Notes: generated by a model not told the origin, from the letters alone. A stretch of 64,000 bases of DNA from Blastocatellia bacterium (GCA_046565505.1 JBKHYJ010000042.1:67770-131769), one strand, 5' to 3'; shown: positions 20,964 through 41,181, counted from the stretch's first letter. A program made the numbers and translations.

Positions 20964-21268
20964 AACTGCATTCCTCCTTTCTAATCCTCGGCTGTAATCA
21001 CTGAATTCCGTGAGTAAGTCCCGGGCAGCGGTGTGCCGCCGCGTCACGCGAGCATGCGGGCGCCCACTGCTCAAGATTGTTGGCCTGTTAGGTGGTTCGG
21101 ACGGATGGTCCCGGCTTTACTGTGACCGAAGAAAGCGGTCCGGCATTCAGGCGGCTCGGTCAAGCCGCCCGAAGCATCATGGCATGGACATGTAAGCTGG
21201 TTTCTCTACGCGGTTGTGGCGGCAAAGCAATCTTCGCCGCCCTGTTACTTTCACGGGGGCGCCGACCC

Positions 21269-24081: not shown

Positions 24082-24900
24082 CTAGGGCTTTTCGCCGCAT
24101 GCCATAAGCAGCAGCCTGATGACAAACCTGTCCTCGGAGGCGAGGAGTTTGTCGGAGGCCGCGCGGAGGGTTTCGTACTCTTCTTCTGTTATTACGCCCG
24201 CATCAACGAGGGGCAACGCGCGTTGGGGGTTGATCTGCGGGTAAAACCCTTCGATGCCTTTGTCGCCGCTGTGCGTCGCCACGATTTCGAGGTCTATGTT
24301 TTTAAACCCGGCTTTGCTCAGTATCCGCCAGAGCTCGCGGCCTATCATCGTATTCCCGCCGAGCGAGGTCTGGTACTGCCTGAGCTTCTCGCGGACGGGC
24401 TGGATCTCGGGGAAATAAGGGTCGGTCATGAGGTTGAAGGCGAAGTCGCCTTCGGTCAGCACAAGCCTGCCGCCCGGCTTGAGCAGGCGTTTGATCTCAT
24501 TTAACGCCTCGACGCGGTCGGGTATGTGCTCGAAGACGAGCCGGCCGAAAGCGAAATCGAAGCTCTCGTCCGGGAGGTCCGTCTTATTTATTGACGCTTC
24601 GACGAAGCGGTACTTGCACTGCGCCGCCCGCTCTAAATGCTGCTCGGCGTATTTAATCATGACCGGGTCAAGCTCGACGCAGGTGATCGAGCCGTTCGGG
24701 ATCAGCTTGGAAACCCATTCCGTGACGAATCCCGGCCCGCTCCCCACCTCCAGGACGGACATGCCATCCCGCAGGCCGAACGCCAACAGGTTGCGCCCTT
24801 CTTTCTCCACGTTCAGGTTAGCCTGGTAGTAAAGGCGCTCGATCTCCGCGTCCAGGCTGACATTCGCCGTGCTAACGTCGTACACTTTCGGTTGAGCCAT
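24082..24900 (-). CDS. class I SAM-dependent methyltransferase (paralogue 2)
   Basis: LEVGSGPGFVTEWV motif I. Roughly 55-60% identical across its length to the 13958-14806 product. Confidence 0.85.
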   Translation of the reverse strand: MAQPKVYDVSTANVSLDAEIERLYYQANLNVEKEGRNLLAFGLRDGMSVLEVGSGPGFVTEWVSKLIPNGSITCVELDPVMIKYAEQHLERAAQCKYRFVEASINKTDLPDESFDFAFGRLVFEHIPDRVEALNEIKRLLKPGGRLVLTEGDFAFNLMTDPYFPEIQPVREKLRQYQTSLGGNTMIGRELWRILSKAGFKNIDLEIVATHSGDKGIEGFYPQINPQRALPLVDAGVITEEEYETLRAASDKLLASEDRFVIRLLLMACGEKP

Positions 24901-24994: not shown

Positions 24995-26308
24995 CTAAAG
25001 AGCCTCGGACTCGGACTCGGCCGCCGCCGGCCCGCTTGTGAATGGCTCATCAGGCTTGCGGACGTTCGCCGAGGTGAATAGCCCCGCCGTGGCGAGCAGA
25101 ATGCACATCAGGCCCGTGGCGACCAGCACCGCCGACGCGCCGGCCCGCTCGGCGACCATAGAGGCGGCCGCCGTGCCGAGCGGGCCTATCACCGTGAGTA
25201 TCATCCAGAAGGCGGAAGTTACGCGCCCGAGCAGGCGGTCCGGCGTGACCTGCTGGCGCAAAGACATAGAGCTGACGTTCCTCACAGTGATGCCGAAGCT
25301 GTAGCACGCAGAGAGCGCCGCCAGGGCCGCCACGTTAGGCGCGAGGCCGATTGCGGCGATGGCCGCGCCCATCAAAATATTGCTGCCCAGAAAAGACCAG
25401 CCGAACCCTTTCCTGCGGCGCAGCGCCGGCGCGAGTACGCCCGCCAGTATCGCACCTACGCTGGCGATGCCGAAGATGATCCCGACCGTGTCGTCGTTTC
25501 GGCCCATGTCATGCTTCAGGCGGAATATGACCAGATTCATCGTCGCGCCTGAGATGAAAGAAAAGATGGCGAGCAGCACCGTGACCGACCTCAGCACGCG
25601 GTGGGTGAACACGAAGCGGACCCCTGCGAGGATGTTATCTATCTTCGAGCGGCCCGAATCGGTGGATTGCTCCGCGGGCTCGGGGTCGGCCTTGCGCAGC
25701 CTGACCATCAGCATAAAAATCGCGGAGGCCCCATACGACAGTGCGACCGTTATGACCGCATTGGTGGCGCTGAAGTGTCTGGAGGCAAGGCCGGCCAGCA
25801 TGGGGCCCGCCACGTAGGCGACGGCGACCGTGGCCTGCAACCGGCCATTGGCCTCGGTTATCTGTTCTTTATTGACCACGCCGGGTATTACCGACGTGTA
25901 CGCGATGAAGAAAAATGTCGTCAGGTAAGCGGTTATGGTCGCGACGACGTAAATGGCCATCAGGCTCGGGCCGAGCAGCCACCAGATGAGCGGTATGGCG
26001 AGGTAAAATAACATCCTGCCCAGGTCCGAGAGAATCATTACCTTTCGCCGATCCACCCTGTCTACCACGACCCCGCTTACCATGCTCGAAATCAGGTTGC
26101 CCGCGCCGATGGCCGCCGTGACCAGCCCCATCTGCGCAACCGACCCCGTCGCCTCAAGCACCAGCAACGGGATCACGATCAGGGCGGCCGAATCGCCGAG
26201 GGCGTCAAAGGTCTGCCCCACCCAGAAGGTGTTGAAATTACGGTCGCGCCACAGCCCGCGGCCGGGCGAAGCAGCGGCCGCCACGCCGAGCGGTGTTGTA
26301 TTACTCAT
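24995..26308 (-). CDS. MFS transporter (EntS-like / DHA-type exporter)
   Basis: 12 predicted TM helices, MFS motif region G..VDR.DRRKVM. Start overlaps the upstream carrier-protein gene by 8 nt. Confidence 0.85.
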   Translation of the reverse strand: MSNTTPLGVAAAASPGRGLWRDRNFNTFWVGQTFDALGDSAALIVIPLLVLEATGSVAQMGLVTAAIGAGNLISSMVSGVVVDRVDRRKVMILSDLGRMLFYLAIPLIWWLLGPSLMAIYVVATITAYLTTFFFIAYTSVIPGVVNKEQITEANGRLQATVAVAYVAGPMLAGLASRHFSATNAVITVALSYGASAIFMLMVRLRKADPEPAEQSTDSGRSKIDNILAGVRFVFTHRVLRSVTVLLAIFSFISGATMNLVIFRLKHDMGRNDDTVGIIFGIASVGAILAGVLAPALRRRKGFGWSFLGSNILMGAAIAAIGLAPNVAALAALSACYSFGITVRNVSSMSLRQQVTPDRLLGRVTSAFWMILTVIGPLGTAAASMVAERAGASAVLVATGLMCILLATAGLFTSANVRKPDEPFTSGPAAAESESEAL

Positions 26309-26739: not shown

Positions 26740-29700
26740 CTAGTCCGCCCCGAGTTTCTCGCCCGGAGATTCCTCCGCGAACGCCTCCACGTCGTCACCT
26801 GTAAGCTCTTGCATCTCCGACAGCACCTCTGCCATCAGGTTCATTTCCGCCTCATCCAGGTTTTGCTGGCCTTGTTCGATTGCGGCGGCGAGCCGGGCGA
26901 CGGTGGGCGACTCAAAGATAGTTCGCAAAGGAAGCTCTATGGGCAGGGCCTGTTGAATCTTCGATATGAGCTGAGTCGCCAGTATGGATTGGCCGCCCAT
27001 CTCGAAGAAGTCGTCATGTACACCCACGCGCTCGACGCCGAGCACGTCGGCCCACACGCCCGCCAGAAGCTCCTCAAGCGGGGAGCGCGGCGAGGCGAAA
27101 GGCGTTTGCGACCGCAGTTGCGATTGGTCGGGCGCGGGCAGCGCCTTACGATCAATCTTGCCGTTGGGGGTCAGCGGCATCTGCTCCAGAGCCACGAACG
27201 CCGAAGGGATCATGAAATCCGGCAGCCTCTCTTTCAAGGAGCCGCGTAGCTGGTCTGCCGAAAGAGTCTCCCCGGCCTCCGCGACGACGTATGCCACCAG
27301 ACGCTTGTCGCCCGGCCTATCTTCTCTGTCCACGACCACGGCTTCCCTGACGGAGGCGTTCCGCCTTATCGCCTCCTCGATCTCGCCAAGCTCTATGCGG
27401 AACCCGCGTATCTTGACCTGATGATCTATGCGCCCGAGGAACTCGATATTGCCATCGGGCAGGTAGCGCGCGAGGTCCCCCGTGTCGTAGAGTCGCGCCC
27501 CGGGCTCTTCGGAAAATGGGTTGGGGATGAACTTCTCTGCCGTCAGGTCCGGCCGCTTCAGGTAGCCGCGCGCTAGGCCCTCGCCGCCTATGTGTAACAC
27601 GCCAGGTATCCCGACCGGGGCCGGGCCGAGGTAGCCGTCCAGTATATAAATGTTTGTGTTCGCGACCGGCCGGCCGATAGGCACCAGCCCCGCCTCGCTA
27701 CGCCCGCCGCATTCCCAGTAAGTCACGTCCACGGAGGCTTCAGTCGGGCCATACAGGTTGTGCAATTCCGCGCTCATCAGATCGAAGAATCTCTGCTGTA
27801 GCTCGTAGGGCAACGCCTCCCCGCTGCATACGACTCGCTTCAGCCTGTAGCAAGCTTCCAGCCCATCACCCGCGAGGAAAAGCTGTAGCATCGAGGGCAC
27901 AAAATGAATCGTGGTTATCTTCTGCCTTGCTATCTCCTCGATCAGGTATTGCCTGTCTTGATGCCCCTCGGGCAGGGCCATTACCACGCACGCCCCGGTA
28001 ATCAGCGGCCAGAAGAACTCCCAGACGGACACGTCGAAGCTGAAAGGCGTCTTCTGCAATACCCTGTCGTCGCCCGTCATCTGATACGCCTCCTGCATCC
28101 ACAGCAGCCGATTACAGATTCCTCGATGAGGGATCATCACGCCTTTGGGCTTGCCCGTAGACCCGGAGGTGTAGATCACGTACGCCAGGCTCTCGCCCGA
28201 AGCCTCGTTGACAAGGTTTGCCTCGGACTCCCGCGATATGACATCCCAATCAGAATCAAGGCGGACGGTCTTCCCCATGTGCTCCGGCAACCGTCCCGCC
28301 AATCCGCCCTGAGTGAGCAGCACGGGCGGGCGGGCGTCGTCGAGCATGAACGTTAAGCGTTCTTTCGGGTAGGCCGGGTCTAAAGGCACATAAGCCCCGC
28401 CCGCCTTGAGAATGCCGAGCAGACCTACCACCATTTCCAACGACCGCTCGGCGCATACGCCCACGGGCACGTCCGGGCCGACCCCCCGCCGCCGCAGGAA
28501 ATGGGCCATTTGATTCGCCCGCCGGTTCAGCTCCGCATAACTGAGCCGCCGGTCGTCAAAGATGACCGCGTCGGCGAGCGGCGTGCGCTCGGCCTGCGCC
28601 TCGACCATCTCATGCAGGCACACGCCGCGCGGGTAGTCTCTCTTCGTTTGATTGAATTCGACAAGGACCTGGTGCTGTTCCTCCTCCGACAGCATGCGCA
28701 GGCCGCGCACGGGTCGGCTCCAGTCTTCTGTCGCGGAATCGAGTATCGCCAGAAAATGCCTCGCGGCATCCGCGCTCTGCCCTTCGCCGAACGCGCCGCA
28801 GTTGAAGTCAAAATCTAATACGAAATCTCCGCTCCCCTTGAAGTCGCTGACCTGTAGGGTCAAAGTGTCGTTGGAATGCCCCGAATGGACCAGGTCGAAT
28901 TCTACATGCAGCCCGCACAATTCCGTGAGCGACGCGCTTTGATAATTGAAGTAGACGTTGTAGACCCTGTTGTCGCGGGAGTTGCGGACAGGGTACATCT
29001 GGTTTCTCGACGATTCGAGCATCTCGACCTGCACGCGCCTGGCGAGCGAGTCGAAGTTGTCTCCCCCCGAGACGGAGACTTCGAGCGGGCAAACGTTTAT
29101 GAACAGCCCGGGCGTCTGCCTGAAAGCGTCCGGCCGGTTGGCGAACGGCGAGCCTATCCTCAGCCGCCGCTCCCCGGAGACGCGGTGCTGGTAGGCGAAT
29201 AACGTCGCGGCGAATACGACGGCCGGCGAGAATAACCCTTCGCGGCCCGCGACCTGCTTGACCCTCCGGCTGCGCTCCGCCCCGAGGTTGATTGATACCC
29301 TGCGGGTGCGGGTGGTCTTCGCGGAGGAATCTCTCTTATAAAACTGAAACAGATTGGGCGCCGTGGCGAGCTTCTTCCTCCAATAGAGTTCGGCCTGGCC
29401 GTATTGGGGCGAACGGCGGAATTCCCTCTCGTATTCTATGTAGGCCGCGTATGGGGGGAGCGGACGCGCCTCACCGATTCTGCCTTCGAGCGAGAGATGG
29501 TAATACTCGGACACCGACCGTAAGATCACGGCCACCGACCACAGGTCCGCTATCATGTGACTCAGGCTCAAGAACCACACGAACCGATCTTGCGAGAGCT
29601 TGAAGAGGGCCGAGTCGAACAGCCTCTCCCCCAGATCGAGCGGCTCGGCGCACAGCCGCCTGAGCGCCTCCCCGCATTCGGCGCGCGGGTCTTCGCCCCC

Positions 29701-32700
29701 GGAGAGGTCAACGTAGTCGATCTCGAAGTGGATATTCTGGTGCTCTATCCGCCGCGGCGCGCCGTTCGACTCGACGACGGTGCTGCGCAGCACGTCACTG
29801 TTATCTATGACCTTCTGGAACGCCGCGCGGAAATGCGCAACGTCGATCGCGCCTTCGATGGCGAACGTCCCTAGAACGTTGTCGAAGTACAGCTGTACGT
29901 CAGGCTGTAGCTTTTTGCTGAACCAGAACAACAACTGGTTCTGTGCCATGTTCGATTGTTCGTAGATGGCGTCAGTCGCGTCGGCTATGACGCCCTGGCC
30001 GTCCTTTTCCGCCTGCGGGAGTGCAGGCCCCGTCTGCCCCGGCCGTCGTTCGACCAGCGGCGGCAGCGTGAGGATGCGTCGCTCGGGATGGTGGGCGACA
30101 TCCTCCAACACCGCCTCGAAGAATTCCAGGAACCGCCGGGCCGTCGAAGCCTCAAACAGGTCGGAGTTGTATTCGAGCGCCCCCCTTAGTTTCCCCTGCT
30201 CTTCGCGGACGAAAACGGTCAGGTCGAGCCTGGACGTGTGGTCCTCGAACGGGATGCGGCTGACGGTGACGCCGGGCAGGTCAAGGAGCTGGGGTGAAGA
30301 ATTCTCGAAGGCGAACGCGACCTGGCGCAGAGGCGGGCGGCTAAGGTCTCTCTTCTGCTGGAACGCCTCCACCATCTTCTCGAATGGCATGTCCTGGTGG
30401 TCGAAGGCGTCGAGCGTCGCCTCGCGCACGCGATTTATCAGCTCCTTATAAGTCGGGTCGCCCGACAGGTCTATCGGCGGGACCAGTATGTTAGTGAAGA
30501 AGCCGATCAGCCCCTCCGTCTCCATGTGATTCCGGTTGGCGACGGGCAGCCCGACGATTATCTTCTCCTGGCCGGAACACCTGTGCAGCACGGCGGCGTA
30601 AGCCGCCAGCAGCGTCATGAATAGTGTGCTCCCTTGCTGTAGGCTCAGCTCCCTGACGGCCCTCGACAGCGAATCGGGAAACTCAAATGTCAGGGTCGCG
30701 CCGCGGAATGCCTGGACGGCGGGCCGCGGCCTGTCGGTCGGCAGGTCCAGCGTGGGAATGTCATCGCCCAGGCGGCGCTTCCAATGCTCAAGCTCCGCCC
30801 CTAACACGGGGCCGTCGAGCCACCGGCGCTGCCAGACGGCGAAGTCCGCGTACTGGATGGGCAGCGCGGGCAGGGGCGAGGCCAGCCCCTCCGAGAAAGC
30901 CCTGTAGAGCGCGGAAATCTCCCCGTTGAAAATCCCGACCGACCAGTCGTCAGACACTATGTGGTGAATGGCGAGAATCAGCACGTGTTCGTGTTCGCCG
31001 AGCCGGGCAAGGGCGGTCCTCAGCAAAGGCCCTCGGGTCAGGTCGAACGGACGGCGCGCCTCTTCGGCGGCCATTCGCAGGACGGCTTCTTCCCGCGCAG
31101 GCTCATCCAGGTGCGACAGATCGACGACCGGAAAATCCACTTCAAGGCTCGGCGCGACGACCTGCACGGGCTGGCCCTTGTCAGCGCTGAAAGTCGTGCG
31201 CAGTATGTCGTGGCGGCGCACGACTTCGTTGATGCTGCGCCCGAAGGCCCTCACGTCCAGCGGTCCGCTCAGGCGCAAGGCGACGGAGACGTTATAAACC
31301 GGGTTGTTCGGCACGAGCCGGTCGAGGAACCACAGCCGCCACTGCGAGTAAGATAAAGGGATCGCCGCGCGACTCCGCGATTTTTCAATGGGCGGGGCCT
31401 GAAGTCCCGTCCCATTCGCCCGCTCGCTCTTGATGAACTCGGCCAGGGCCGACACGGTCGGCGACTCGAACAGCTTGCGCAAAGGCAACTCCATTTGAAA
31501 GGCGGCGCGGAGGCGCGAGACGGCCTGTGTCGCGAGCAGCGAGTTGCCCCCTGCCTCGAAGAAATTCTCATGCACGCCTACCCGCTCAAGGCCCAGCACC
31601 TTCGCCCACACGTTAGCCACGATCTCTTCCACGGGGTTCGTGATGCCGGGACTCACGGCCTCGGATGCGGCTTCGTGTTGATCGGGCGCGGGAAGCGAGC
31701 GGCGGTCCACCTTGCCGTTCGGCGTCAGCGGGATGGCGTCCAAAAACAGGAACCGCGACGGAACCATGTACTCAGGGAGCCGCGCTTTCAGGAAAGCGCG
31801 CAGGTCGTCCGCACTGACATCTCTGCCCTGCTCCGCTACGACATAAGCCACCAGCCGCCTGTCGCTCGCCTCATCTTGCGCGGCCAATACCACGGCGTTG
31901 CGCAAGGCGTCGTGGCCTCGCAACACCGATTCGATTTCGCTCGGCTCTATCCGAAAACCCCTGACCTTCACTTGATCGTCTACACGGCCGAGGAACTCGA
32001 TGGCCCCATCGGGCAAGTGACGAGCCAGGTCGCCCGTTTTGTAAAGGCGCTCGCCCGGCGGGCCGCCGAACGGGTTCGGTATGAACTTTTCGGCGGTCAA
32101 GTTCGGGCGTTTGAAGTAACCGCGTGCCAGCCCCGCCCCTCCGATATGGATTTCGGCCGGGACTCCCGCGGGTACGGGCTGGGCGTCGCCGTCGAGCAAA
32201 TAGACCTGCGCGTTCGGGAGCGGATAGCCTAATGGGACGGTCGCGAGGTGATCGGCCATGCGCCGCGGGTCAGCATGATAGGTCAGCACGCCCACGGTGG
32301 TCTCCGTCGGGCCGTAGTGATTGATAACCGTCAGGCCGGGGTTGAGGCCCCGGAGCTGCTCGACCCAATTCCTCTGCGACGCCTCGCCGCCCAGCACGAG
32401 CATCTTGCGCGGTAAGACCTGCTCGCCATTAGAGAACGACCGCAAGCTCGCGAGGTGGCTCGGCACTACCTTGAGGCAGTCGATTGAGTTCTCGCGGAAG
32501 TAGCTGCTCATCGCGTCGGCGTCGGAGGCACGGTCCTCTGATATTACATGGAGGCAGCCGCCATTGCAGAGCGAAGGAAAGATGACCGTGTTTCCGAGGT
32601 CGGCCGCCGGCGTGGATACCAGCGCGAAGCTGCTCATGGCGGCCAGTCCTAACCTTTCGGCCGCGCCAATCATGTAATTGACCAGTTGCCTGTGCTCGAT

Positions 32701-35700
32701 GGCGACGCCCTTTGGCCGCCCGGTCGAACCTGATGTATAGAGCACGTAAGCGAGATTGTCGCCTGCTACATTAGAGGCCGGGTTCCCGTCGCTTTCCCGA
32801 CTTATCAGGTCCCAGTCCGAATCCACGCACACCGCCGCGTCCCCGTGTTCGGGCAAGGCATGAATCAACCGCTCCTGAGTCAACAGCGTCGCGGCCCCAA
32901 CGTCTTCGAGCATGAAAGCCACACGGTCCTTCGGGTATGACGGATCGATGGGCACGTAGGCCCCGCCGGACTTTAGTATTCCGAGCAGCCCGACGAACAT
33001 CTCCGGCGACCGCTCCATACACATGCCTACGGGCGTCTCGGGGCCGACGCCCAGCTTGCGCAGGTAATGCGCCAGCCGGTTCGCCCTCGCGTTCAAGTCC
33101 CGGAAGGTGAGCCGTTGCCCCTCGAACATTATCGCGATGTTGTCGGGCGTTCGCTCGACCTGCTCTTCAAAGAATTGATGCACGCACAGGTCTTCGCGGA
33201 AATCCCTCCGGGTGTCGTTGTACGCCACGAGCAAATGATGCAGCTCGGCCTCGGAGAGCATGGGCAGCGCCGAAATGGGCGTTGCGGGGGCCGACGCGGC
33301 TGCCTCCAGCAGCCGCTGGAAGTGGCCGGCCATCCTCCCTATCGTGGGCGCGTCGAATAGCTCTGTCTTGTACTCTATCCAGCCGCTTATCACGTCGGGC
33401 TGCTCTTCCGACAGCGCCATCGTCAGGTCAAATTTCGTCGCCTTTCTTTCGACTTCCACGAAGCTCGTTTTCAGTCCCGCCAAACTCGGCTCGGGCGTCG
33501 GCTCCATTTGCATCTCGAACATGGCTTGAAAGATCGGGTTACGGCTCAACTGCCTTTCGGGTTGTAGCTCATCGACCAACATTTCAAAAGGCAGGTCCTG
33601 GTGGGCGTAAGCGTCAAGACACACGCCTCGCTCGCGGGCTAACGTCTGCGTAAAGCTCGGCCTCCCGGAGAGGTCCGTGCGCAGGACCAGTGTATTTACG
33701 AAGAAACCGATCAACCCTTCCAACTCCGCGCGGTTGCGGCCCGCTATGGGCGTGCCGACGATTATGTCTTCCTGGCGGGTATACCTGTGGAGCAATACCT
33801 TGAATGCGCACAGCAGGGTCATGAACATGGTGACGCCCTCCTGCCTGCTGAGCGCCTTGAGCGACCGCGTCAAATCCTCCGACAGAGCGAACGACTGCCT
33901 GGAGCCTTGGAAGTCCGAGGCCTGCGCGTGCGGCCGGTCCGTCGGCAGCTCCAGCACCGGGAGGTCGCCCGAGAGCTTCTGTCTCCAGTACGACAACTGC
34001 GATTCCAACAACTCACCTTGTAACCACCCCCGCTGCCATACGGCGAAATCAGCGTACTGGATCGGCAACCCGGGAAGCGGCGAAGGTCTGCCGGCGGAAA
34101 AGGCGTCATAGAGTACGCCCATCTCGCGCGCGAACACGCCCAGAGACCACCCATCCGAAACAATGTGGTGCAAGCACAGAATCAGCAGGTGGTCATCTTC
34201 GCCCACGCGCAGGAGCTTCGCACGAAGCAACGGCCCCGCGGCGAGGTCAAAAACATGCGCGGCCTCTTCTTCGGCTAACTTTAGCGCGCCGGCCTCGCGT
34301 GAGCCGGCCGGCAGGTCAGTAAGGCTTATCACGGGGAGAGGCAGCTTAAGCTCCGGCGAGATGACTTGCCGGGGCCGCCCCTCCGCGGAGATGAATGTGG
34401 TTCTGAGGGATTCGTGACGCCACACTAGCTCATTCAAGCTCTGCTCTAAGGCCGAAATGTCGAGCCGGCCCTTGATGCGTATGGCCCCCGGCATGTTGTC
34501 TGCGCGGCGGCCGGGCTCTAACTGGCTGAGGAACCACAGGCGCTGTTGGGCGAAGGAAAGCGGCAGTTGCCCGTCGCGGGAGGCGGGCGATAGCTGCGGC
34601 GCCGCAGGCGCGGCCGCCGACCGGAGCGCCCTCTCTACGACCTGCGCCAGCCCGGCCACTGTCGGCGATTCAAACAGCGCGCGGACAGACAACTCTACGC
34701 CGAACGCATTATGCACGCGAGACAAAAGCTGCATGGCTAGCAGCGAGTGTCCGCCCATCTCGGAAAAGTCGTCATAAATACTTACGCGGTCGAGCCCGAG
34801 CACCTCCATCCAGATTTCCGCAAGGGCCTCCTCGACCGGCGTGCGCGGGGCGGCAAAGATACCCGCCGAGGCGGGCTTAGTCCAGTCTGGCGCGTGAAGC
34901 GCGCGGCGGTCCACCTTGCCATTCGGCGAGAGCGGCAGCGCGTCGAGAAGCACGAGCGAGGAAGGCACCATGTATTCGGGAAGCTTCTCCTCCAAGTAGC
35001 TGCGCAGAATCGGGACCAGTTTTTCGATGTGGACCCCCTGAAGCGGCGCGGTCGCGTACTTGCCCCACGGCCTGGGGCTTATAGTCTCTTTGACGAGAGG
35101 GGCGGCCGCCCTGATCGCGGCTTCTCCCTGCCCGGCGGCGCGGCGCTGGAAGACGATCTCGTATCGGCCATCCGCCCTCGATTCCGACCAGCCTATGCTG
35201 ACGGAGTACGGCTCTTCGTCGCCTATCGCCCAGATGTCCTCGGGGTCTATTCCCTCTTCGCCCGCCCCGGCGTATTCTGCCATCAACTCCGCCGCGGTCG
35301 CCGGGCCGTTGGCCTGTTTCAGCATTTGCACCAGTTTCACATCCGCCATGACCCTGGCGTTGGGCACTCCCTTTATGGCTAGCAGGTCAGGCCGGCTCTC
35401 TCGCAGCAGTCGCCGCACGCCGGCCGCCGTCAGGCCTTCAGTTTCCCAGTCGAGCCAATCGACATGCCGGGCGGCGCGCCTCTCGCCCCCGACATGCAGA
35501 ATCACGTCGTAGCGGAATTTGCTTAGCTCGTTCCGATTGCGCCCCCGCATCAGCAGTATTTCCACATGGCTTATCTGCGGCAGGTGGCGCTTCAGCGCGA
35601 TAAAGAACTCGGGGTCGATCACCAGTTGTTTTTCTTTTAGCAACTGTGTTTGTACCTGCTGCAATAACTCCGCCTTAGACAGCCCGGGCGGCGACTTGTG

Positions 35701-38700
35701 CAGTTGGACGGAGGTGTGGAAGGCTTCGAGCAGCGACAAGTTCCTAACGTCGCCCAGGAAAATATGCCCGCCTTTCGCGACCGCCCTCACGGCCTGTTCG
35801 AGTACGCGCATGAGGTAATCGACGCTCGGGAAGTACTGCGCAACCGAAACGATCAGCACCGCGTCGAACTCGCCCTCCTCCACGCCCTGGAAATTATCCC
35901 CGCCCCTGAGCTTGAAGCTCACCTGCGGCAGGTCGACGCCCATGATCTTTAACTGCTCCTGAATCAGTTCGAGCGAGCGCACCGCCTGATCCGTCGCGTA
36001 ATACTTCTCGCAAGAGGGCGCGACGCGCAGCAGCATAAGCCCGCTGCCCCCCGAGCCGATCTCATACACGCGCGAAGGGCGCAGCGACAGGATTCGCTCG
36101 ACCGTCTGGTCCATCCACTCGCGCACCTCTTCGCCGGGGATGGGCGCATCGGAGTAGCTGCTGGTCCAGCCCTTGATGTAGAACCCGAGTTCTTCGCCCG
36201 GGTCCATGTCCCTGTAGAGGTCGTTGAAAATCTCGCGCCAGTCGGCGGCCTGCCTGCTTTGCAGGTCATCGCCCGCCGCGCGCTCGTCGAATTCCACGTG
36301 CTCCCTGTCCGGGACCACGAACCCGACGAGCCGCTTATTGCCCGCGCCATATTCCTGCGCGAGGATCACGGCGTCCCGCACGGCGCGGTGCTGCCTCAGC
36401 ACAGTTTCGATCTCCTCAAGCTCGACGCGGAACCCGCGTATTTTCACCTGCTGATCGACCCGGCCGAGGAATTCAAGGTTGGCGTCCGGGAGGTAGCGGG
36501 CGAGGTCGCCGGTTCGGTACATCCTTTCGCCGGGCTTGAGCGCGAAGGGGTTAGGTAAGAACCTGTCGGCGGTCGTGTCGGGCCGCCCGTGATAGCCTCG
36601 GGCCAGGAGGGCGCCGCCCAGGTAGACCTCGCCCTGCACGCCGACCGGGGCGGGCTGTAGGTTCGTATCCAGTATATAAATCTTGGCGTCGGGTATGGCG
36701 GACCCTATCGGTAGCTCGCGCGTCACGCCCTCCCTCACGGGGAACTCCGATATGTCGCACATAGAGACGGAGATCGTCGCTTCGGTCGGGCCATAAGTGT
36801 GCATGAGCCGGGTCCGGCCTGCCGCATGCTTCTGCCAGGCGGCGAGCCTCTCCGGGAACGCCCTTTCCCCCGCTATGACGACCATCCTCAGCGAGGGCGG
36901 CAGCGACAGATTCTCTTCTTCCAGCGTGGCCGTGATTTGATGCCAGTATGCGGTCGGCAGGCTCATCACGGATATCCCCCACTCCCTGCACCTCTCCAGG
37001 AAGACGGTTACGGAGTCGAGCATAGAATCGGTCCGCAGCACGAGCGCCGCCCCGCGGGTGAGACACGGGTATATCTCTTCCCCGCTTATGTCGAAACTGA
37101 TCGAGCAGAATTGAAGCGCGCGGTCACCGGGCTTCACCCCGTAGTTGACCGCGCAAGTTTCCGCGTAGCTCACAAGCGAGCGGTGCTGGACCATCACGCC
37201 TTTCGGGGACCCCGTGGAGCCCGACGTGTAAATGACGTAGACGAGATTTTCTCCCGCGACGGTGTTGACAGGGTTCTCTTCGCTCTCGCCCGCGACCGCT
37301 TCCCATCCGGAATCCAAACAGATCACGCGCACGTCCCCGGCCGGAATGGTCTTGAGCAATCGCCGTTGCGTCAGCAGCACGGGCACGCGGGCGTCGTCCA
37401 ACATCAGTGCGAGGCGCTCCGGCGGGTAGTCTTTGTCTAACGGCACGTAGGCGCCCCCGGCTTTGATGATCCCGAGCATACCCACCATCATTTCCAGAGA
37501 GCGTTCCATGCACAGGCCGACAAGAACGTCTGGCCCCACCCCCATAGACCGTAAGCGATGAGCCACCTGATTGGCGCGGCTGTTCAACTGACGGTAAGTG
37601 AGTTCTTCTTTCTCGAAGGCCAGGGCGATGGCTTCGGGCGACCGCTCGACCTGCCGCTCGAATAGCAGGTGTATGCAAGGAGATTGAATATACTGCCGGT
37701 CGGTATCGTTCCAGGCGAAGAGGATCTGTTGGCGTTCAGACCTCGACAGGAGGTCTAAATCCGAGATGCGCGCGGCGGGGTCGGCCACTATACTCTCCAG
37801 GAGTCTTTGGAAATGGCCCACCATCCTGCCGACCGTGCCGGATTCAAACAGGTCCGTGTTGTACTCGAAGGAGGCGGCCAGCCCCTCGTCCACCTCGGCT
37901 ATGCTCAGGGACAAATCGAACTGAGCTATCTGCTGGTGCAGGCCCGTAGATTCCAGTAGCAAATCTCCCAGCCGCATCTGCACCCCGGCCTCCCCCAGCG
38001 CGAACGTAGCCAGCCTTTGCACGTCCGGCAGGGGCGACTTTTGCCATACGAACATCACCTGAAAAATAGGCGAGCGGCTGAGGTCGCGCACGGGTTGCAG
38101 TCGCTCGACAAGTAGCTGGAACTGGAAATCCTGGTGCTCGAAGGCTTCCAGTGCGGTCCGGCGCACCTGGTCCAGAAACTCGTCGAATCTAACGGAGGCC
38201 GACGCCTGCGCCCGCATCACGACGGGGTTGACGAAATAGCCTACGACCCCGCGCAAGTCGGCCCTGCCGCGGCCGGCCGTCGGCGAGCCCACGAGGATGT
38301 CCTCCTGAGCGGTGTAGCGGTAAAGCAGCGCCTGGAACGTCGCCAGCAACGTCATGTAGGGCGTCGCTGAGCGCGCGGCGGCGAGGGACTTCAGGCCCCG
38401 GGTGAGGTCGCGTTCCAGCTTGAAGAATATCGACGCACCGTTGTAAGTCTGGACGGGCGGCCTGACTTTATCCGTGGGGAGATTCATCACGGGGAGGTCG
38501 CCGGCAAGCTTTTCCTGCCAGTACTGCCACAGCCGGTCGCCGGCGGGACCGGACAGCATCTCTATTTGCTGCCTGACGTACTCCACATACTCTAATTCGA
38601 TGGGCGGGAGCGCCGCCTCCTCGCCGGCCGTCTTAGCCTGGTACAGTATCCCTAGCTCACGCATCATCACGGCCAGGGACCAGAGGTCGGCTATGATGTG

Positions 38701-41181
38701 GTGCATGGTCATTAGCAGAACGTGATCCTGCGCCGACCGCGTGAAAAGGGTGACGCGCAGCAGCGCGCCCCGTTCGAGGTTGAACGGGCGCTGAGCGTCC
38801 TCGATCACCCGCCTGTTCAGAAATTCGTCGTCCCACCGCGAAGCGTCCTCTAACTGGAAACACACCTCTGCGCGATCATGAATCAATTGTATGGGACTAC
38901 CCCCGGGGGCGGTGAAATTCGTGCGCAAGGAGGGGTGACGGTCGATGAGCGATTGAAATGCCCGGCGCAACGCGTCCGAATCTACGCGCGACCTGATGCG
39001 GACGGCGCCCATAATATTGTAGGCCGCGCTGTGCGGGGCCAGTTTATGCAGGAACCAGAGAGCGCGCTGTCCGTGGGAGAGAGGGTGTTCAGATTCGGCG
39101 TCACGTTCGGGGGCGGCGAGAGCCGGCGAGGGTCCGGGCGCGGCCGCCAAGCGGGAAAAAACCTGCGCGGCGATTTGAGCGACGGACAAGTTTTCGAGGA
39201 AATTCGCCATCGGGAGGTTCACGCCCAGACTGGTCTCTATGCCGTACGCTAGCTCGACTGCCACGAGGGAATCTAAACAGAATTGGGCTATGGGCCGGCT
39301 CGGGTCTATGCCGGAGGGCTCTACTCCCAGCATCATCGCCAGTCGCGATATAAGACCGGATTCGATCTCTTCGGTAGTTTGCGGAGGTGAGGCGAGCGCC
39401 TGCGGCTCGCTTCGAGGTATCAGGTTTAAATTGGACTGCGCGACCGCTTCGAGGCTCCCGGCCATATACCTTGCGCGGCAGGCTTGGCGTTGAATCTTGC
39501 CGCTGGAAGTCTTCGGTATGCTTCCCGGCTCAAGCAGGACGACCGCGTACGTTTGGATTTCATGTTCTTCCGCCACGGCCCTGCGGACGGCCTCTATAAC
39601 CGCGTCTGCGTCGAGGGGCGGCCGATTACTTACTTCCTGAGCCAGCACGAGGCGCTCTTCGCCGCCCACTTCGACTGAGAACGCGGCGCCGCAGCCGGGC
39701 CTCAGGGCCGGGTGACTCCTCTCGGCCGTCAACTCGATGTCCTGTGGGTAATGGTTACGCCCCCTTATGATAATCAGGTCTTTGAGTCTGCCGGTGACGA
39801 ACAACTCTCCGCCCTGTAGGAAGCCGAGGTCGCCTGTACGCATGTAAGGGCCATCGCCCGTGTCGGAGACGTACGCTTCAAACGTGTCCCGCGTCTCATC
39901 CGGGCGGCCCCAGTAGCCGCGGGCCATACTCGGCCCCCTCAGCCATATCTCCCCTATCTGATCTGTCGCACACTGAGTCAGAGATTCAGTGTTTACGATC
40001 ACCGCGTCGAGACCAATCGCGAGCCTGCCGCAGCCGGTCAGACTGCGCGAATCCAGCCCGCGCGCGGTGGCTTCGACCAGCCGGTTTTCTTTAAGGGCGG
40101 ATTCGTCAAAGGCGCTGATGACTGGGGGCGATTGTTTCGGCCCGCCCGCCACGAATAAAGTGGCCTCGGCCAAGCCGTAGCAGGGGCAGAAAGCCTCTCT
40201 GCGAAAGCCGCATGGCTCGAATGCGGCCGAGAACCGCTCTATCGTTTCAGGGCGGACTGGCTCCGAGCCATTGAAAGCCACCGTCCAACTGGAGAGGTCA
40301 AGGTCGGCTCGCTGTTCGTCACTGATCTTGCGAACACAGAGGTCGTAGGCGAAGTTCGGCCCCCCGCTCGTCGCGGCTTTATAACGCGACACGGCCTGTA
40401 GCCAGCGCAGGGGCTTTTGTAAGAACGCTTCCGGCGATAAGAGGATCGACCTTGAGCCTATGTACAATGGCTGGAGCACGTTGCCTATCAGCCCCATGTC
40501 GTGGAAGAGCGGCAGCCACCCGACGAAGGTCGATTCTTCGGTGTGGTCGAACGAGGCCCGGATCATACGTTCGTTATGTAACACGTTGCCATGAGTGACC
40601 ATCACGCCCTTCGGGGCGGCTGTCGAGCCGGACGTATACTGAAGGAAGGCTAACGTTTCAGAATCAACTTCAGGCTCGTGCCATTCGTCAGCAAGGCCGC
40701 GGGCCATTGCGTCCGTGGCAACCCTTCGCACGGACCGGATGTCCTGATCCAGGCCCGGCAGGCTCTCGATCATAGAAAGGATGGGAGATACGGTCAGGAC
40801 GACGAAAGGTCCCGCGTCATTTACGATGGCTCTGAATCTGGGCAGGCTCCGGCTCAGGCGGGCGGGGTCGGGTGAGTATGTAGGCACGGCAGTAACACCC
40901 GCGTACAGGCAGCCGAAAAAGGCGGCTATGAAATCTAACCCCGAGGGGTAAAGTAGCAGGGCGCGTTCCCCAGTCGCGTTCAAGGACTGGAGGTATGCGC
41001 CTATGGCTCGCGCCCGCCGGTCTAATTCTTCGTAGGTGAGGCTGGCCTCCTTGGTTTCCCCATCCGAAAGGAAGCTGTAGGCTAGTCGATCAGGCTGGTT
41101 CAGTGCCCTCCATCTCAGAAGCTCGATCAGGGAGGAGAATCCCGCATGGCTGCTAGAACCAGCTACTCTCTTGCTTTTCAT
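26740..41181 (-). CDS. non-ribosomal peptide synthetase, 4813 aa: FAAL-ACP-C-A(N-MT)-T-C-A-T-C-C*-A-T plus C-terminal docking region
   Basis: All core motifs read from the translation. FAAL (YTSGSTAAPKGVMVTHGN, extended insertion) with fused ACP (FCLDSLV). C1 MHHIIADLWS. A1 (SGSTGSPKG ... GRVDQQVKIRGFRVE) carrying an inserted SAM-MT domain (VYEIGSGGSG) before NGKVDRRAL. T1 GGHSL. C2 LHHIVSDGWS. A2. T2 GGNSL. C3 IHHIVSDDWS. C* with SHMIADLWS. A3. T3 GGQSIL. ATG with GGGGGA RBS. Confidence 0.97.
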   Translation of the reverse strand: MKSKRVAGSSSHAGFSSLIELLRWRALNQPDRLAYSFLSDGETKEASLTYEELDRRARAIGAYLQSLNATGERALLLYPSGLDFIAAFFGCLYAGVTAVPTYSPDPARLSRSLPRFRAIVNDAGPFVVLTVSPILSMIESLPGLDQDIRSVRRVATDAMARGLADEWHEPEVDSETLAFLQYTSGSTAAPKGVMVTHGNVLHNERMIRASFDHTEESTFVGWLPLFHDMGLIGNVLQPLYIGSRSILLSPEAFLQKPLRWLQAVSRYKAATSGGPNFAYDLCVRKISDEQRADLDLSSWTVAFNGSEPVRPETIERFSAAFEPCGFRREAFCPCYGLAEATLFVAGGPKQSPPVISAFDESALKENRLVEATARGLDSRSLTGCGRLAIGLDAVIVNTESLTQCATDQIGEIWLRGPSMARGYWGRPDETRDTFEAYVSDTGDGPYMRTGDLGFLQGGELFVTGRLKDLIIIRGRNHYPQDIELTAERSHPALRPGCGAAFSVEVGGEERLVLAQEVSNRPPLDADAVIEAVRRAVAEEHEIQTYAVVLLEPGSIPKTSSGKIQRQACRARYMAGSLEAVAQSNLNLIPRSEPQALASPPQTTEEIESGLISRLAMMLGVEPSGIDPSRPIAQFCLDSLVAVELAYGIETSLGVNLPMANFLENLSVAQIAAQVFSRLAAAPGPSPALAAPERDAESEHPLSHGQRALWFLHKLAPHSAAYNIMGAVRIRSRVDSDALRRAFQSLIDRHPSLRTNFTAPGGSPIQLIHDRAEVCFQLEDASRWDDEFLNRRVIEDAQRPFNLERGALLRVTLFTRSAQDHVLLMTMHHIIADLWSLAVMMRELGILYQAKTAGEEAALPPIELEYVEYVRQQIEMLSGPAGDRLWQYWQEKLAGDLPVMNLPTDKVRPPVQTYNGASIFFKLERDLTRGLKSLAAARSATPYMTLLATFQALLYRYTAQEDILVGSPTAGRGRADLRGVVGYFVNPVVMRAQASASVRFDEFLDQVRRTALEAFEHQDFQFQLLVERLQPVRDLSRSPIFQVMFVWQKSPLPDVQRLATFALGEAGVQMRLGDLLLESTGLHQQIAQFDLSLSIAEVDEGLAASFEYNTDLFESGTVGRMVGHFQRLLESIVADPAARISDLDLLSRSERQQILFAWNDTDRQYIQSPCIHLLFERQVERSPEAIALAFEKEELTYRQLNSRANQVAHRLRSMGVGPDVLVGLCMERSLEMMVGMLGIIKAGGAYVPLDKDYPPERLALMLDDARVPVLLTQRRLLKTIPAGDVRVICLDSGWEAVAGESEENPVNTVAGENLVYVIYTSGSTGSPKGVMVQHRSLVSYAETCAVNYGVKPGDRALQFCSISFDISGEEIYPCLTRGAALVLRTDSMLDSVTVFLERCREWGISVMSLPTAYWHQITATLEEENLSLPPSLRMVVIAGERAFPERLAAWQKHAAGRTRLMHTYGPTEATISVSMCDISEFPVREGVTRELPIGSAIPDAKIYILDTNLQPAPVGVQGEVYLGGALLARGYHGRPDTTADRFLPNPFALKPGERMYRTGDLARYLPDANLEFLGRVDQQVKIRGFRVELEEIETVLRQHRAVRDAVILAQEYGAGNKRLVGFVVPDREHVEFDERAAGDDLQSRQAADWREIFNDLYRDMDPGEELGFYIKGWTSSYSDAPIPGEEVREWMDQTVERILSLRPSRVYEIGSGGSGLMLLRVAPSCEKYYATDQAVRSLELIQEQLKIMGVDLPQVSFKLRGGDNFQGVEEGEFDAVLIVSVAQYFPSVDYLMRVLEQAVRAVAKGGHIFLGDVRNLSLLEAFHTSVQLHKSPPGLSKAELLQQVQTQLLKEKQLVIDPEFFIALKRHLPQISHVEILLMRGRNRNELSKFRYDVILHVGGERRAARHVDWLDWETEGLTAAGVRRLLRESRPDLLAIKGVPNARVMADVKLVQMLKQANGPATAAELMAEYAGAGEEGIDPEDIWAIGDEEPYSVSIGWSESRADGRYEIVFQRRAAGQGEAAIRAAAPLVKETISPRPWGKYATAPLQGVHIEKLVPILRSYLEEKLPEYMVPSSLVLLDALPLSPNGKVDRRALHAPDWTKPASAGIFAAPRTPVEEALAEIWMEVLGLDRVSIYDDFSEMGGHSLLAMQLLSRVHNAFGVELSVRALFESPTVAGLAQVVERALRSAAAPAAPQLSPASRDGQLPLSFAQQRLWFLSQLEPGRRADNMPGAIRIKGRLDISALEQSLNELVWRHESLRTTFISAEGRPRQVISPELKLPLPVISLTDLPAGSREAGALKLAEEEAAHVFDLAAGPLLRAKLLRVGEDDHLLILCLHHIVSDGWSLGVFAREMGVLYDAFSAGRPSPLPGLPIQYADFAVWQRGWLQGELLESQLSYWRQKLSGDLPVLELPTDRPHAQASDFQGSRQSFALSEDLTRSLKALSRQEGVTMFMTLLCAFKVLLHRYTRQEDIIVGTPIAGRNRAELEGLIGFFVNTLVLRTDLSGRPSFTQTLARERGVCLDAYAHQDLPFEMLVDELQPERQLSRNPIFQAMFEMQMEPTPEPSLAGLKTSFVEVERKATKFDLTMALSEEQPDVISGWIEYKTELFDAPTIGRMAGHFQRLLEAAASAPATPISALPMLSEAELHHLLVAYNDTRRDFREDLCVHQFFEEQVERTPDNIAIMFEGQRLTFRDLNARANRLAHYLRKLGVGPETPVGMCMERSPEMFVGLLGILKSGGAYVPIDPSYPKDRVAFMLEDVGAATLLTQERLIHALPEHGDAAVCVDSDWDLISRESDGNPASNVAGDNLAYVLYTSGSTGRPKGVAIEHRQLVNYMIGAAERLGLAAMSSFALVSTPAADLGNTVIFPSLCNGGCLHVISEDRASDADAMSSYFRENSIDCLKVVPSHLASLRSFSNGEQVLPRKMLVLGGEASQRNWVEQLRGLNPGLTVINHYGPTETTVGVLTYHADPRRMADHLATVPLGYPLPNAQVYLLDGDAQPVPAGVPAEIHIGGAGLARGYFKRPNLTAEKFIPNPFGGPPGERLYKTGDLARHLPDGAIEFLGRVDDQVKVRGFRIEPSEIESVLRGHDALRNAVVLAAQDEASDRRLVAYVVAEQGRDVSADDLRAFLKARLPEYMVPSRFLFLDAIPLTPNGKVDRRSLPAPDQHEAASEAVSPGITNPVEEIVANVWAKVLGLERVGVHENFFEAGGNSLLATQAVSRLRAAFQMELPLRKLFESPTVSALAEFIKSERANGTGLQAPPIEKSRSRAAIPLSYSQWRLWFLDRLVPNNPVYNVSVALRLSGPLDVRAFGRSINEVVRRHDILRTTFSADKGQPVQVVAPSLEVDFPVVDLSHLDEPAREEAVLRMAAEEARRPFDLTRGPLLRTALARLGEHEHVLILAIHHIVSDDWSVGIFNGEISALYRAFSEGLASPLPALPIQYADFAVWQRRWLDGPVLGAELEHWKRRLGDDIPTLDLPTDRPRPAVQAFRGATLTFEFPDSLSRAVRELSLQQGSTLFMTLLAAYAAVLHRCSGQEKIIVGLPVANRNHMETEGLIGFFTNILVPPIDLSGDPTYKELINRVREATLDAFDHQDMPFEKMVEAFQQKRDLSRPPLRQVAFAFENSSPQLLDLPGVTVSRIPFEDHTSRLDLTVFVREEQGKLRGALEYNSDLFEASTARRFLEFFEAVLEDVAHHPERRILTLPPLVERRPGQTGPALPQAEKDGQGVIADATDAIYEQSNMAQNQLLFWFSKKLQPDVQLYFDNVLGTFAIEGAIDVAHFRAAFQKVIDNSDVLRSTVVESNGAPRRIEHQNIHFEIDYVDLSGGEDPRAECGEALRRLCAEPLDLGERLFDSALFKLSQDRFVWFLSLSHMIADLWSVAVILRSVSEYYHLSLEGRIGEARPLPPYAAYIEYEREFRRSPQYGQAELYWRKKLATAPNLFQFYKRDSSAKTTRTRRVSINLGAERSRRVKQVAGREGLFSPAVVFAATLFAYQHRVSGERRLRIGSPFANRPDAFRQTPGLFINVCPLEVSVSGGDNFDSLARRVQVEMLESSRNQMYPVRNSRDNRVYNVYFNYQSASLTELCGLHVEFDLVHSGHSNDTLTLQVSDFKGSGDFVLDFDFNCGAFGEGQSADAARHFLAILDSATEDWSRPVRGLRMLSEEEQHQVLVEFNQTKRDYPRGVCLHEMVEAQAERTPLADAVIFDDRRLSYAELNRRANQMAHFLRRRGVGPDVPVGVCAERSLEMVVGLLGILKAGGAYVPLDPAYPKERLTFMLDDARPPVLLTQGGLAGRLPEHMGKTVRLDSDWDVISRESEANLVNEASGESLAYVIYTSGSTGKPKGVMIPHRGICNRLLWMQEAYQMTGDDRVLQKTPFSFDVSVWEFFWPLITGACVVMALPEGHQDRQYLIEEIARQKITTIHFVPSMLQLFLAGDGLEACYRLKRVVCSGEALPYELQQRFFDLMSAELHNLYGPTEASVDVTYWECGGRSEAGLVPIGRPVANTNIYILDGYLGPAPVGIPGVLHIGGEGLARGYLKRPDLTAEKFIPNPFSEEPGARLYDTGDLARYLPDGNIEFLGRIDHQVKIRGFRIELGEIEEAIRRNASVREAVVVDREDRPGDKRLVAYVVAEAGETLSADQLRGSLKERLPDFMIPSAFVALEQMPLTPNGKIDRKALPAPDQSQLRSQTPFASPRSPLEELLAGVWADVLGVERVGVHDDFFEMGGQSILATQLISKIQQALPIELPLRTIFESPTVARLAAAIEQGQQNLDEAEMNLMAEVLSEMQELTGDDVEAFAEESPGEKLGAD
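27112..28659 (-). other. A domain 3, hand-derived code D-V-W-H-V-S-L-V-D-K (close to Ser code DVWHLSLIDK)
   Basis: FDVSVW...TTIHFVPS...VVCSGE...NLYGPTEASVD. Manual derivation. Confidence 0.5.
28702..31368 (-). other. tandem condensation-family domains (canonical C3 followed directly by divergent C* with SHxxxD) preceding A3
   Basis: C3 has C1/C3/C5/C6/C7 motifs (LSYSQWRLWFL, HHIVSDDWS, IGFFTNILV, HQDMPFE, RDLSRPPL). The next ~425 aa form a second C-like domain (LLFWFSKKLQP, LSLSHMIADLWS) that lacks the HQD and RDxSRNPL motifs. No A or T domain lies between them. Confidence 0.75.
31687..33204 (-). other. A domain 2, hand-derived specificity code D-L-T-K-V-G-H-V-G-K (near-identical to Asp code DLTKVGHIGK)
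   Basis: Positions 235/236/239/278 from AADLGNT...CLK, 299/301 from VLGGE, 322 from NHYGPTE, 330/331 from TTVG. Manual alignment to GrsA numbering, so tentative. Confidence 0.5.
35182..36264 (-). other. N-methyltransferase domain inserted between A8 and A10 motifs of A domain 1
   Basis: VYEIGSGGSG (checked at nt 36040-36069) resembles the NRPS N-MT motif VLEIGTGSG. Flanked by GRVDQQVKIRGFRVE (A8) and NGKVDRRAL (A10). Confidence 0.8.
39142..41181 (-). other. FAAL (fatty acyl-AMP ligase) starter domain with fused ACP
   Basis: N-terminal FAAL-type adenylation region (aa 1-~585) followed by a DSL carrier motif at aa ~637. Implies N-acylation, i.e. a lipopeptide. Confidence 0.85.

Follow-up and report, generated by a model that had tools for sequence, protein, structure and literature searches.

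Candidate targets of a stand-alone TauD-like hydroxylase in a lipopeptide synthetase cluster from Blastocatellia

Which residue of a nonribosomal peptide is modified by a hydroxylase whose gene stands apart from the synthetase modules? This question is raised by a 64,000-nucleotide stretch of DNA from a Blastocatellia bacterium (GCA_046565505.1 JBKHYJ010000042.1:67770-131769), hereafter called the window, which holds a lipopeptide nonribosomal peptide synthetase (NRPS) cluster of Blastocatellia (Acidobacteriota); a protein sharing 100% identity with one of the window's gene products likewise has its record in a Blastocatellia metagenome-assembled genome. The window encodes a large NRPS, a terminal NRPS and a stand-alone hydroxylase (Table 1), and the original prediction was that the second amino-acid adenylation (A) domain, A2, carries an Asp-like code and that a SyrP/TauD-like hydroxylase acting in trans would turn this residue into beta-hydroxy-Asp. 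As argued below, Asp tethered to the carrier (T) domain of module 2 (Asp-S-T2) appears to be the single most likely target, given the frequency of substrates in the enzyme family and a precedent with the exact code; its probability falls somewhat short of even because of missing recruitment marks, the position of the enzyme in the family tree and its synteny.

The aspartate code of A2 and the family of the hydroxylase

A2 corresponds to residues 2660-3165 of the 4813-aa NRPS and matches Pfam AMP-binding and AMP-binding_C, as well as the GrsA-PheA structure 1amu (E=2e-112). The codes of all four amino-acid A domains were read by MAFFT alignment to GrsA-PheA, after verification of the reference numbering (D235 A236 W239 T278 I299 A301 A322 I330 C331 K517). 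For A2, the multiple and the pairwise alignment alike gave DLTKVGHVGK, with D235 and K517 present, in agreement with the code extracted by hand in the original prediction. That extraction assumed an ungapped stretch between positions 239 and 278; since the alignment has no gap there and the sole nearby indel is a 4-residue insertion after 283, the placement of residue 278 is correct. The code shares 9 of 10 positions with the Bacillus Asp code DLTKVGHIGK, and 12 hydroxylase-partner A domains of related loci carry it with all 10 positions identical. It is also the exact code of the tistrellabactin A domain for L-erythro-beta-OH-Asp, in a system whose hydroxylase is stand-alone (PMC10391617, Table 1), and in a survey of 2051 A domains DLTKVGHVGK was associated mostly with Asp and occasionally with Asn. 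When the whole domain was compared with 184 A domains from hydroxylase loci, the top 12 matches (53-58% identity) all carried DLTK[IV]GHVGK. On this evidence, A2 almost certainly loads aspartate.

The second half of the proposal requires an enzyme of the appropriate family. Read from the ATG at 11561, the hydroxylase has 344 aa, the same length as its homologues, and matches PF02668 (E=1.4e-46); it is a genuine reading frame that is kept in variants of the cluster, so this part of the original prediction holds. Five residues, H120, E122, H316, R318 and R325, are invariant across 34 homologues and, by motif, are candidate metal ligands (H120/E122/H316) and candidate 2-oxoglutarate (2OG)-binding arginines (R318/R325). 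NCBIfam models gave weak C-terminal matches only and no family-level assignment, and the closest named homologues come from Blastocatellia/Pyrinomonadaceae metagenome-assembled genomes. A related set of 103 hydroxylase domains in 88 loci (45-60% identity) was more informative, as nearly all of them lie inside NRPS genes or operons. In the usual layout, an NRPS ending in a condensation (C) domain is followed by the hydroxylase, either fused or encoded separately, and next by a divergent C-like domain lacking HHxxxD (the interface, or I, type), an A domain and a carrier. Partner A codes were readable for 76, and just over half of these (39/76) are the Asp code DLTK[IVL]GH[IV]GK, followed by Asn-like (17) and Glu-like (about 10) codes, the rest being rarer. 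A 50%-identical homologue (P0088) is a C + TauD fusion. In Leptolyngbya sp. NIES-3755, the cyanochelin plasmid encodes a 48%-identical hydroxylase in the layout E-C / TauD / I-A(DLTKIGHVGK)-T-E, within a cluster known to produce beta-OH-Asp. The uniform NRPS context of the relatives, together with the cyanochelin-cluster enzyme, places the hydroxylase in the NRPS aminoacyl beta-hydroxylase family, the commonest partner of which is Asp.

Within this family, several Pyrinomonadaceae loci (L003/L004, L033 and L042) have two hydroxylases in a row, one C-fused and one stand-alone, before a single I-A(DS-DLGVVDK)-T, an arrangement hinting that a Glu-like residue may be hydroxylated twice or with two stereochemistries.

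In the assembly line that these genes would form, a fatty acyl-AMP ligase (FAAL) would load the acyl chain and module 1 would add a methylated, probably basic, residue, since a methyltransferase (Pfam Methyltransf_11/12, residues about 1707-1808 of the large NRPS) is embedded in A1 and the N-terminal part of A1 is closest to Lys/Orn-type A domains in the A-domain comparison. Module 2 would then add L-Asp as residue 2, module 3, with tandem C domains (C3-C4') and a Ser code, would add Ser, and the separate C-A4-T-thioesterase (TE) protein would add a Glu-like residue and release the product. The Pfam matches on the 4813-aa open reading frame (ORF) comprise four condensation, four AMP-binding and four carrier domains, besides the methyltransferase. 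If the hydroxylase acts on module 2, it would convert Asp-S-T2 to its beta-hydroxy form, leaving 3-hydroxy-Asp at position 2. The residue was originally placed next to the acyl chain, which does not fit this order, because the A1 residue comes first.

Possible coupling of the hydroxylase to module 2

A series of observations, gathered in this section, weighs against module 2 as the target. The first concerns recruitment. The rules for the interface domain and for the T_E carrier (core GGDSI) were reconstructed from related loci and from secondary papers (PMC10391617, PMC7100376), and every ORF of the window was scored with profile hidden Markov models (HMMs) of interface-type domains (76 sequences), of ordinary C domains and of the C4' family. 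Among the five C-superfamily domains of the window, C1, C2, C3 and C5 are ordinary and C4' falls into a family of its own (C'), and no interface-type C domain was found in any ORF scored. C4' was itself considered as an interface domain and ruled out, as it scores 590 bits with its own-family model and 137 with the interface model, and its relatives show no hydroxylase association. The GGDSI core is likewise found in none of the window's carriers, which read GGHSL (T1), GGNSL (T2), GGQSI (T3) and GGHSL (T4). In the relatives, one mark or the other accompanies the partner module. There is a minority clade of stand-alone hydroxylases without an interface domain, from Pseudomonas kilonensis (L078), Pseudidiomarina (L083), Sorangium (L073) and Nitrospira (L085), and in 4/4 of these the partner carrier has GGDSI, following the T_E carrier rule for stand-alone hydroxylases (PMC10391617). 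The window has neither mark.

The same picture emerges from a comparison with the known systems. To the interface-coupled Asp hydroxylases (IbH-Asp: cupriachelin CucF, potashchelin PtcB and the cyanochelin cluster), the window enzyme is 48-53% identical, within the same TauD/TfdA subfamily, and it shares their conserved candidate catalytic residues; the clusters have the same or a near-identical Asp A code, and potashchelin is a FAAL-initiated lipopeptide (PMC7100376), as the product of the window NRPS would be. However, in IbH-Asp systems the hydroxylase, fused or as a separate gene, lies between a C domain and an interface domain that immediately precedes the Asp A domain, whereas the window enzyme is encoded about 19 kb from A2, in a cluster with no interface domain and no siderophore uptake genes. 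The SyrP/OrbG/MobD type (TbH-Asp: syringomycin, ornibactin, tistrellabactin) offers a precedent for the distance, since its stand-alone gene can lie away from the NRPS gene, as does an OrbG-like gene in a Burkholderia siderophore locus, and the tistrellabactin partner code is that of A2. The differences begin with the sequence: an OrbG-like protein that carries the annotation 'syringomycin biosynthesis enzyme', used as a stand-in for SyrP, shares only 42% identity with the window enzyme and groups with L078 and L083, and the window enzyme falls outside the clade of L073, L078, L083 and L085. In addition, the partner carriers of that clade have GGDSI where T2 has GGNSL. The description of the enzyme as a SyrP-type homologue is borne out as to the NRPS-hydroxylase family, and the OrbG-like sequence lends no support to a grouping with the SyrP/OrbG-like clade. 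Judged by family and likely chemistry, the Asp module and the hydroxylase resemble the known Asp beta-hydroxylase systems, and they miss one defining anatomical feature of each type.

Synteny also leads away from module 2. The hydroxylase is kept in the same cluster in three variants (95%, 63% and 60% identity), in all of which it adjoins the gene for a 384-aa dehydrogenase-like protein, a methyltransferase, a hydrolase and the small C-A4-T-TE NRPS, and not module 2. The order small NRPS, methyltransferase, dehydrogenase-like gene, hydroxylase and hydrolase is the same in variant L001 and locally rearranged in L086 and L087. As for co-variation between the Asp module and the hydroxylase, the module-2 region was recovered from no cluster variant. 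When the alignment of the small NRPS was used to scan metagenomes, generic C-domain motifs dominated, and the scan returned only unrelated NRPSs at 34-48% identity and no further cluster variants.

Finally, a neighbour-joining tree of 108 hydroxylase sequences places the enzyme of the window and the cluster orthologues (P0002, P0005, P0006, L086 and L087) in one group with L002 and P0011 (100/100 bootstraps). L002 is the nearest relative with a readable context, and its partner A code, DAWHFGQVNK, is non-Asp. The next neighbours, L088 and P0012 (46% support), and the adjacent clades partner the Glu-like D[AS]KDLGVVDK, the large Asp-partner clades lying elsewhere. Because other parts of the tree mix the substrate classes, phylogeny predicts the substrate weakly; the tree position is therefore weak evidence, but it does not speak in favour of Asp. 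Two further comparisons were set aside. The partner module of L002 was rejected as an orthologue of A2 or A4, its best match being A3 and the methyltransferases being unrelated. The A-domain neighbours of A2 and of A4 were rejected as evidence on the target, as both match hydroxylase 'partner' domains, and a set of 184 A domains built around hydroxylase loci does not discriminate between them.

Of the suggested beta-hydroxy-Asp, then, the Asp code and the NRPS beta-hydroxylase family stand; the coupling to module 2 is plausible but does not follow from them, given an interface-less module, the GGNSL core of T2 and a sister enzyme with a non-Asp partner. If the hydroxylase nonetheless makes beta-OH-Asp here, the cluster would be a further lipopeptide pathway that uses an established tailoring reaction, notable mainly for its origin in Blastocatellia (Acidobacteria), the natural products of which are, to our knowledge, almost unexplored. 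In genome mining, an interface domain or a T_E carrier now serves as the rule for predicting that a residue is beta-hydroxylated and with which stereochemistry; as this cluster has the enzyme but neither mark, such rules would overlook the modification or leave it without a residue. Assignment of the target would show whether a third way couples such hydroxylases to the assembly line.

Other targets and the dehydrogenase-fold neighbour

The strongest alternative to Asp-S-T2 is that the hydroxylase acts on the Glu-like residue that A4 would load on T4, giving a C-terminal beta-hydroxylated, maybe methylated, residue, while the Asp at position 2 would stay unmodified. KtzO/KtzP of the kutznerides and related enzymes, which hydroxylate carrier-bound Glu in trans, set a precedent. 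The code of A4 reads DAKDFALDDK when anchored on the AGEA motif and DAKDLGLDDK by pairwise alignment, its orthologues in L086 and L087 reading DA-DFALD-K and DA-DLGMDDK, respectively. It is Glu-like at positions 235-278 and has an extra Asp at 330 besides the Asp 331 usual in Glu codes; we know of no substrate assigned to it. After its own orthologues, the best matches of A4 are Glu-like partner A domains with 52-56% identity (52% for the partner of L088), which also tells against Asp. In line with this reading, the neighbourhood that unites the hydroxylase with the small NRPS is kept in L001, L086 and L087, and the tree neighbours outside the cluster family partner DAWHFGQVNK, DSKDLGVVDK and DS-DLGVVDK, Glu-like codes making up about 10/76 of those readable in the family. 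However, the A4 module also has no I domain, C5 being ordinary and T4 carrying GGHSL, and DAKDFALDDK agrees with the Glu-like partner codes at just 6-7 of 10 positions. Moreover, the link between the window clade and L088 has a bootstrap of 46% in a tree that interleaves substrate classes elsewhere, and Asp partners are four times commoner than Glu-like ones in the family. On balance, hydroxylation of the A4 residue is unlikely, though it deserves serious consideration.

A different route would bypass the carriers altogether. The hydroxylase could have an untethered substrate, either an amino acid or a 2-oxo acid, and belong with the dehydrogenase-fold protein and the methyltransferase to a three-enzyme cassette that builds a block, e.g., a methylated, hydroxylated Glu analogue, for A4 or A1. 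The gene of the 384-aa protein always adjoins that of the hydroxylase in the cluster variants. The protein has no Pfam match at curated thresholds, and its 273 detected homologues, all annotated 'hypothetical', come largely from taxa rich in secondary metabolism, the family recurring in secondary-metabolite loci of cyanobacteria, Chloroflexi, myxobacteria and Acidobacteria. An AlphaFold2 model built on a 35-sequence alignment (mean predicted local distance difference test, pLDDT, 91.9) was matched by Foldseek to the Phe/Leu/Glu dehydrogenase fold, with phenylalanine dehydrogenase 1c1x at E=3e-17, a TM score of 0.69-0.75 and about 16% identity; the family has an invariant GGCGGK and a GSAGALG Rossmann motif. 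Family members are found in an unrelated locus, L089, with a methyltransferase and a different 2OG oxygenase, and in L091, with Asp decarboxylase and Asn synthase beside a polyketide synthase-NRPS. The predicted fold and these gene contexts make a role of the 384-aa protein in precursor supply plausible, by amination of a modified 2-oxo acid.

GlmT/DptI-type methyltransferases supply 3-methyl-Glu in a comparable manner, with a 2-oxo acid first methylated and then aminated; amination in the window would use the dehydrogenase-fold enzyme and not a transaminase. The cassette reading thus draws on a confidently modelled amino-acid dehydrogenase fold next to the hydroxylase, on the pairing seen in L089, on the absence from the window of both known carrier-recruitment marks and on the unusual A4 code that is conserved across variants. 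Against it, the hydroxylase relatives with a readable context are all wired into NRPSs, either between C and I-A-T or beside a T_E module, which points to carrier-bound substrates. L002, the closest relative outside the cluster family (60% identity), keeps the I-domain layout, and the dehydrogenase family occurs without any hydroxylase in L090 and L091. Action on a free precursor is therefore improbable.

The nearest solved structures by sequence are the sulfoquinovose dioxygenase SqoD (9yut, E=5.7e-33) and the plant protein At3g21360, and JGI auto-annotation labels the homologues 'taurine dioxygenase'; E. coli TauD structures were absent from the PDB sequence matches at E<=0.01. SqoD is only the nearest solved relative, at low identity, and the match carries little weight since the PDB matches include no NRPS beta-hydroxylase from this subfamily, so that genomic context decides. 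That the enzyme is a catabolic dioxygenase of sulfonates or taurine with no part in the peptide, the grouping that the original prediction named as fatal to it, is effectively refuted by that context and has a negligible chance of being correct, as the close and mid-distance homologues all lie in NRPS operons, the gene is conserved in the NRPS cluster and no sulfonate transport or utilisation genes were found among the window ORFs scanned (Pfam, 32 of the larger ORFs across the window).

The tandem C3-C4' domains, the product and the other genes

Module 3 has an odd feature of its own, a second condensation-like domain, C4', between C3 and the Ser A domain. The cluster's other C domains are 34-50% identical to each other, and C4' shares only 22-27% identity with them. 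A word-indexed search for its relatives gave one match, and an exhaustive HMMER search was used instead, in which the 150 best matches were domain-annotated. Among these, 55 C4'-like domains were found, 45 of them directly after another C domain and 8 at a protein N-terminus, and most keep HHxxxD. The A domains that follow them have codes for Ser (18), DIWExTADDK (9), which we take to be Dab (2,4-diaminobutyrate)-like, and Orn/Lys-like residues (about 11), besides a few others. The closest relatives (at least 41% identity) with a readable next A domain all precede a Ser code, except for one DIWEITADDK, and variant L087 has C'-A(DIWEITADDK) at the same position. C4' belongs to a family of tandem C domains that is widespread and apparently uncharacterised, and the company it keeps suggests that the tandem C' performs a second acylation or branching step on residues with two nucleophiles (Ser, Dab-like, Orn/Lys-like).

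The only studied architectural analogue found for C3-C4' is module 3 of the icosalide synthetase IcoA, LCL-CI-A(Ser)-peptidyl carrier protein, in which, by 'dual priming', the embedded domain N-acylates Ser and a second chain starts (PMC6553374). In the window, C3(HHIVSDD)-C4'(SHMIADL)-A3(DVWHVSLVDK)-T3 has the same C-C-A(Ser)-T order, and the second C keeps the second (catalytic) His of HHxxxD; the likeness is one of architecture alone, taken from the description of IcoA. C4' is not similar to the C domain that opens a lipopeptide-type NRPS of Pseudomonas (L078).

A joint reading may be drawn from both parts of the cluster: the hydroxylase, having lost interface domain and T_E carrier, would be recruited in a third way or re-used with the dehydrogenase-fold enzyme and the methyltransferase to make a new hydroxylated, methylated acidic block, and, separately, C3-C4' would represent a general type of branch-forming or second-acylation module. 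We regard this combination as rather unlikely. For NRPS enzymology, two testable enzyme families come out of these observations: the tandem C' domains that precede modules for Ser, Dab and Orn/Lys, and the amino-acid dehydrogenases without a Pfam family in secondary-metabolite loci.

Regarding the product, the original prediction pointed to an amphiphilic, metal-chelating lipopeptide while remarking that no TonB receptor is nearby. The remark is correct for 32 of the larger ORFs, those scanned against Pfam, and no N-monooxygenase, acetyltransferase, hydroxamate or catechol genes were found among them. With a single Asp module, and hence at most one bidentate ligand, and no uptake genes, a siderophore-like product is not supported, and the transporters present are an MFS and a MacB-type exporter. 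An exported surfactant or antibiotic lipopeptide is more likely than a siderophore.

Table 1. Features of the window, in order of position
Feature	Position	Strand	Basis
alpha/beta hydrolase, adjoins the hydroxylase also in cluster variants	10579-11415	-	Pfam, synteny
Stand-alone Fe(II)/2OG hydroxylase, NRPS-embedded TauD/TfdA subfamily, 344 aa	11561-12595	+	Pfam, homologues
384-aa protein, predicted amino-acid (Phe/Leu/Glu) dehydrogenase fold	12586-13740	-	AlphaFold2, Foldseek, synteny
S-adenosylmethionine-dependent methyltransferase, 282 aa, between dehydrogenase-like gene and small NRPS	13958-14806	-	Pfam, synteny
Terminal NRPS, 1387 aa, C5-A4-T4-TE	14828-18991	-	Pfam
A4 adenylation domain, Glu-like at 6/10 positions, alternative candidate target of the hydroxylase	15959-17446	-	Alignment, AGEA motif anchor
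B3/4-domain protein (domain family of PheRS beta subunit)	19091-19834	-	Pfam
Fatty-acid-desaturase-like di-iron membrane enzyme	19995-21074	-	Pfam
MacB/FtsX permease, 817 aa, duplicated domains, inside cluster	21269-23722	-	Pfam
Methyltransferase	24082-24900	-	Pfam
MFS exporter	24995-26308	-	Pfam
Large NRPS, 4813 aa, FAAL-T-C1-A1(embedded methyltransferase)-T1-C2-A2-T2-C3-C4'-A3-T3-acidic docking tail	26740-41181	-	Motifs and domain annotation
A3 adenylation domain, code DVWHVSLVDK (Ser)	27127-28617	-	GrsA-PheA alignment
C4', divergent condensation-like domain (SHMIADL), second of the C3-C4' tandem ahead of A3	28669-29973	-	HMM, motif
C3, ordinary C domain (HHIVSDD)	30043-31431	-	Motif, HMM
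T2 carrier, core GGNSL, not GGDSI T_E type	31432-31644	-	Motif
A2 adenylation domain, code DLTKVGHVGK (Asp)	31687-33204	-	GrsA-PheA alignment, literature precedent
C2, ordinary elongation C domain (HHIVSDG) immediately preceding A2	33217-34602	-	HMM (ordinary 666, I-type 304, C' 178)
A1, methyltransferase-interrupted adenylation domain, code DIESVATI[C/S]K	34852-37674	-	Pfam, GrsA-PheA alignment

Several genes of the window complete the cluster or lie beside it. The MacB/FtsX permease with 817 aa is a likely exporter of the lipopeptide, as it lies inside the cluster and is kept in variants L001 and L086. A second large MacB_PCD/FtsX permease (894 aa, 46558-49242, minus strand) also has duplicated domains; such large permeases are common in Acidobacteria. 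The desaturase-like enzyme shows weak similarity to the guanitoxin Arg hydroxylase GntB, and both it and the B3/4-domain protein are kept in variant L001. Outside the cluster, the window holds a UPF0182 membrane protein (978 aa, 53186-56122, plus strand) and, at 59240-63320 on the minus strand, a signalling block composed of an HATPase_c_2 protein, a PocR-GAF-GGDEF diguanylate cyclase and a GAF-HD protein, which are probably unrelated to the NRPS cluster.

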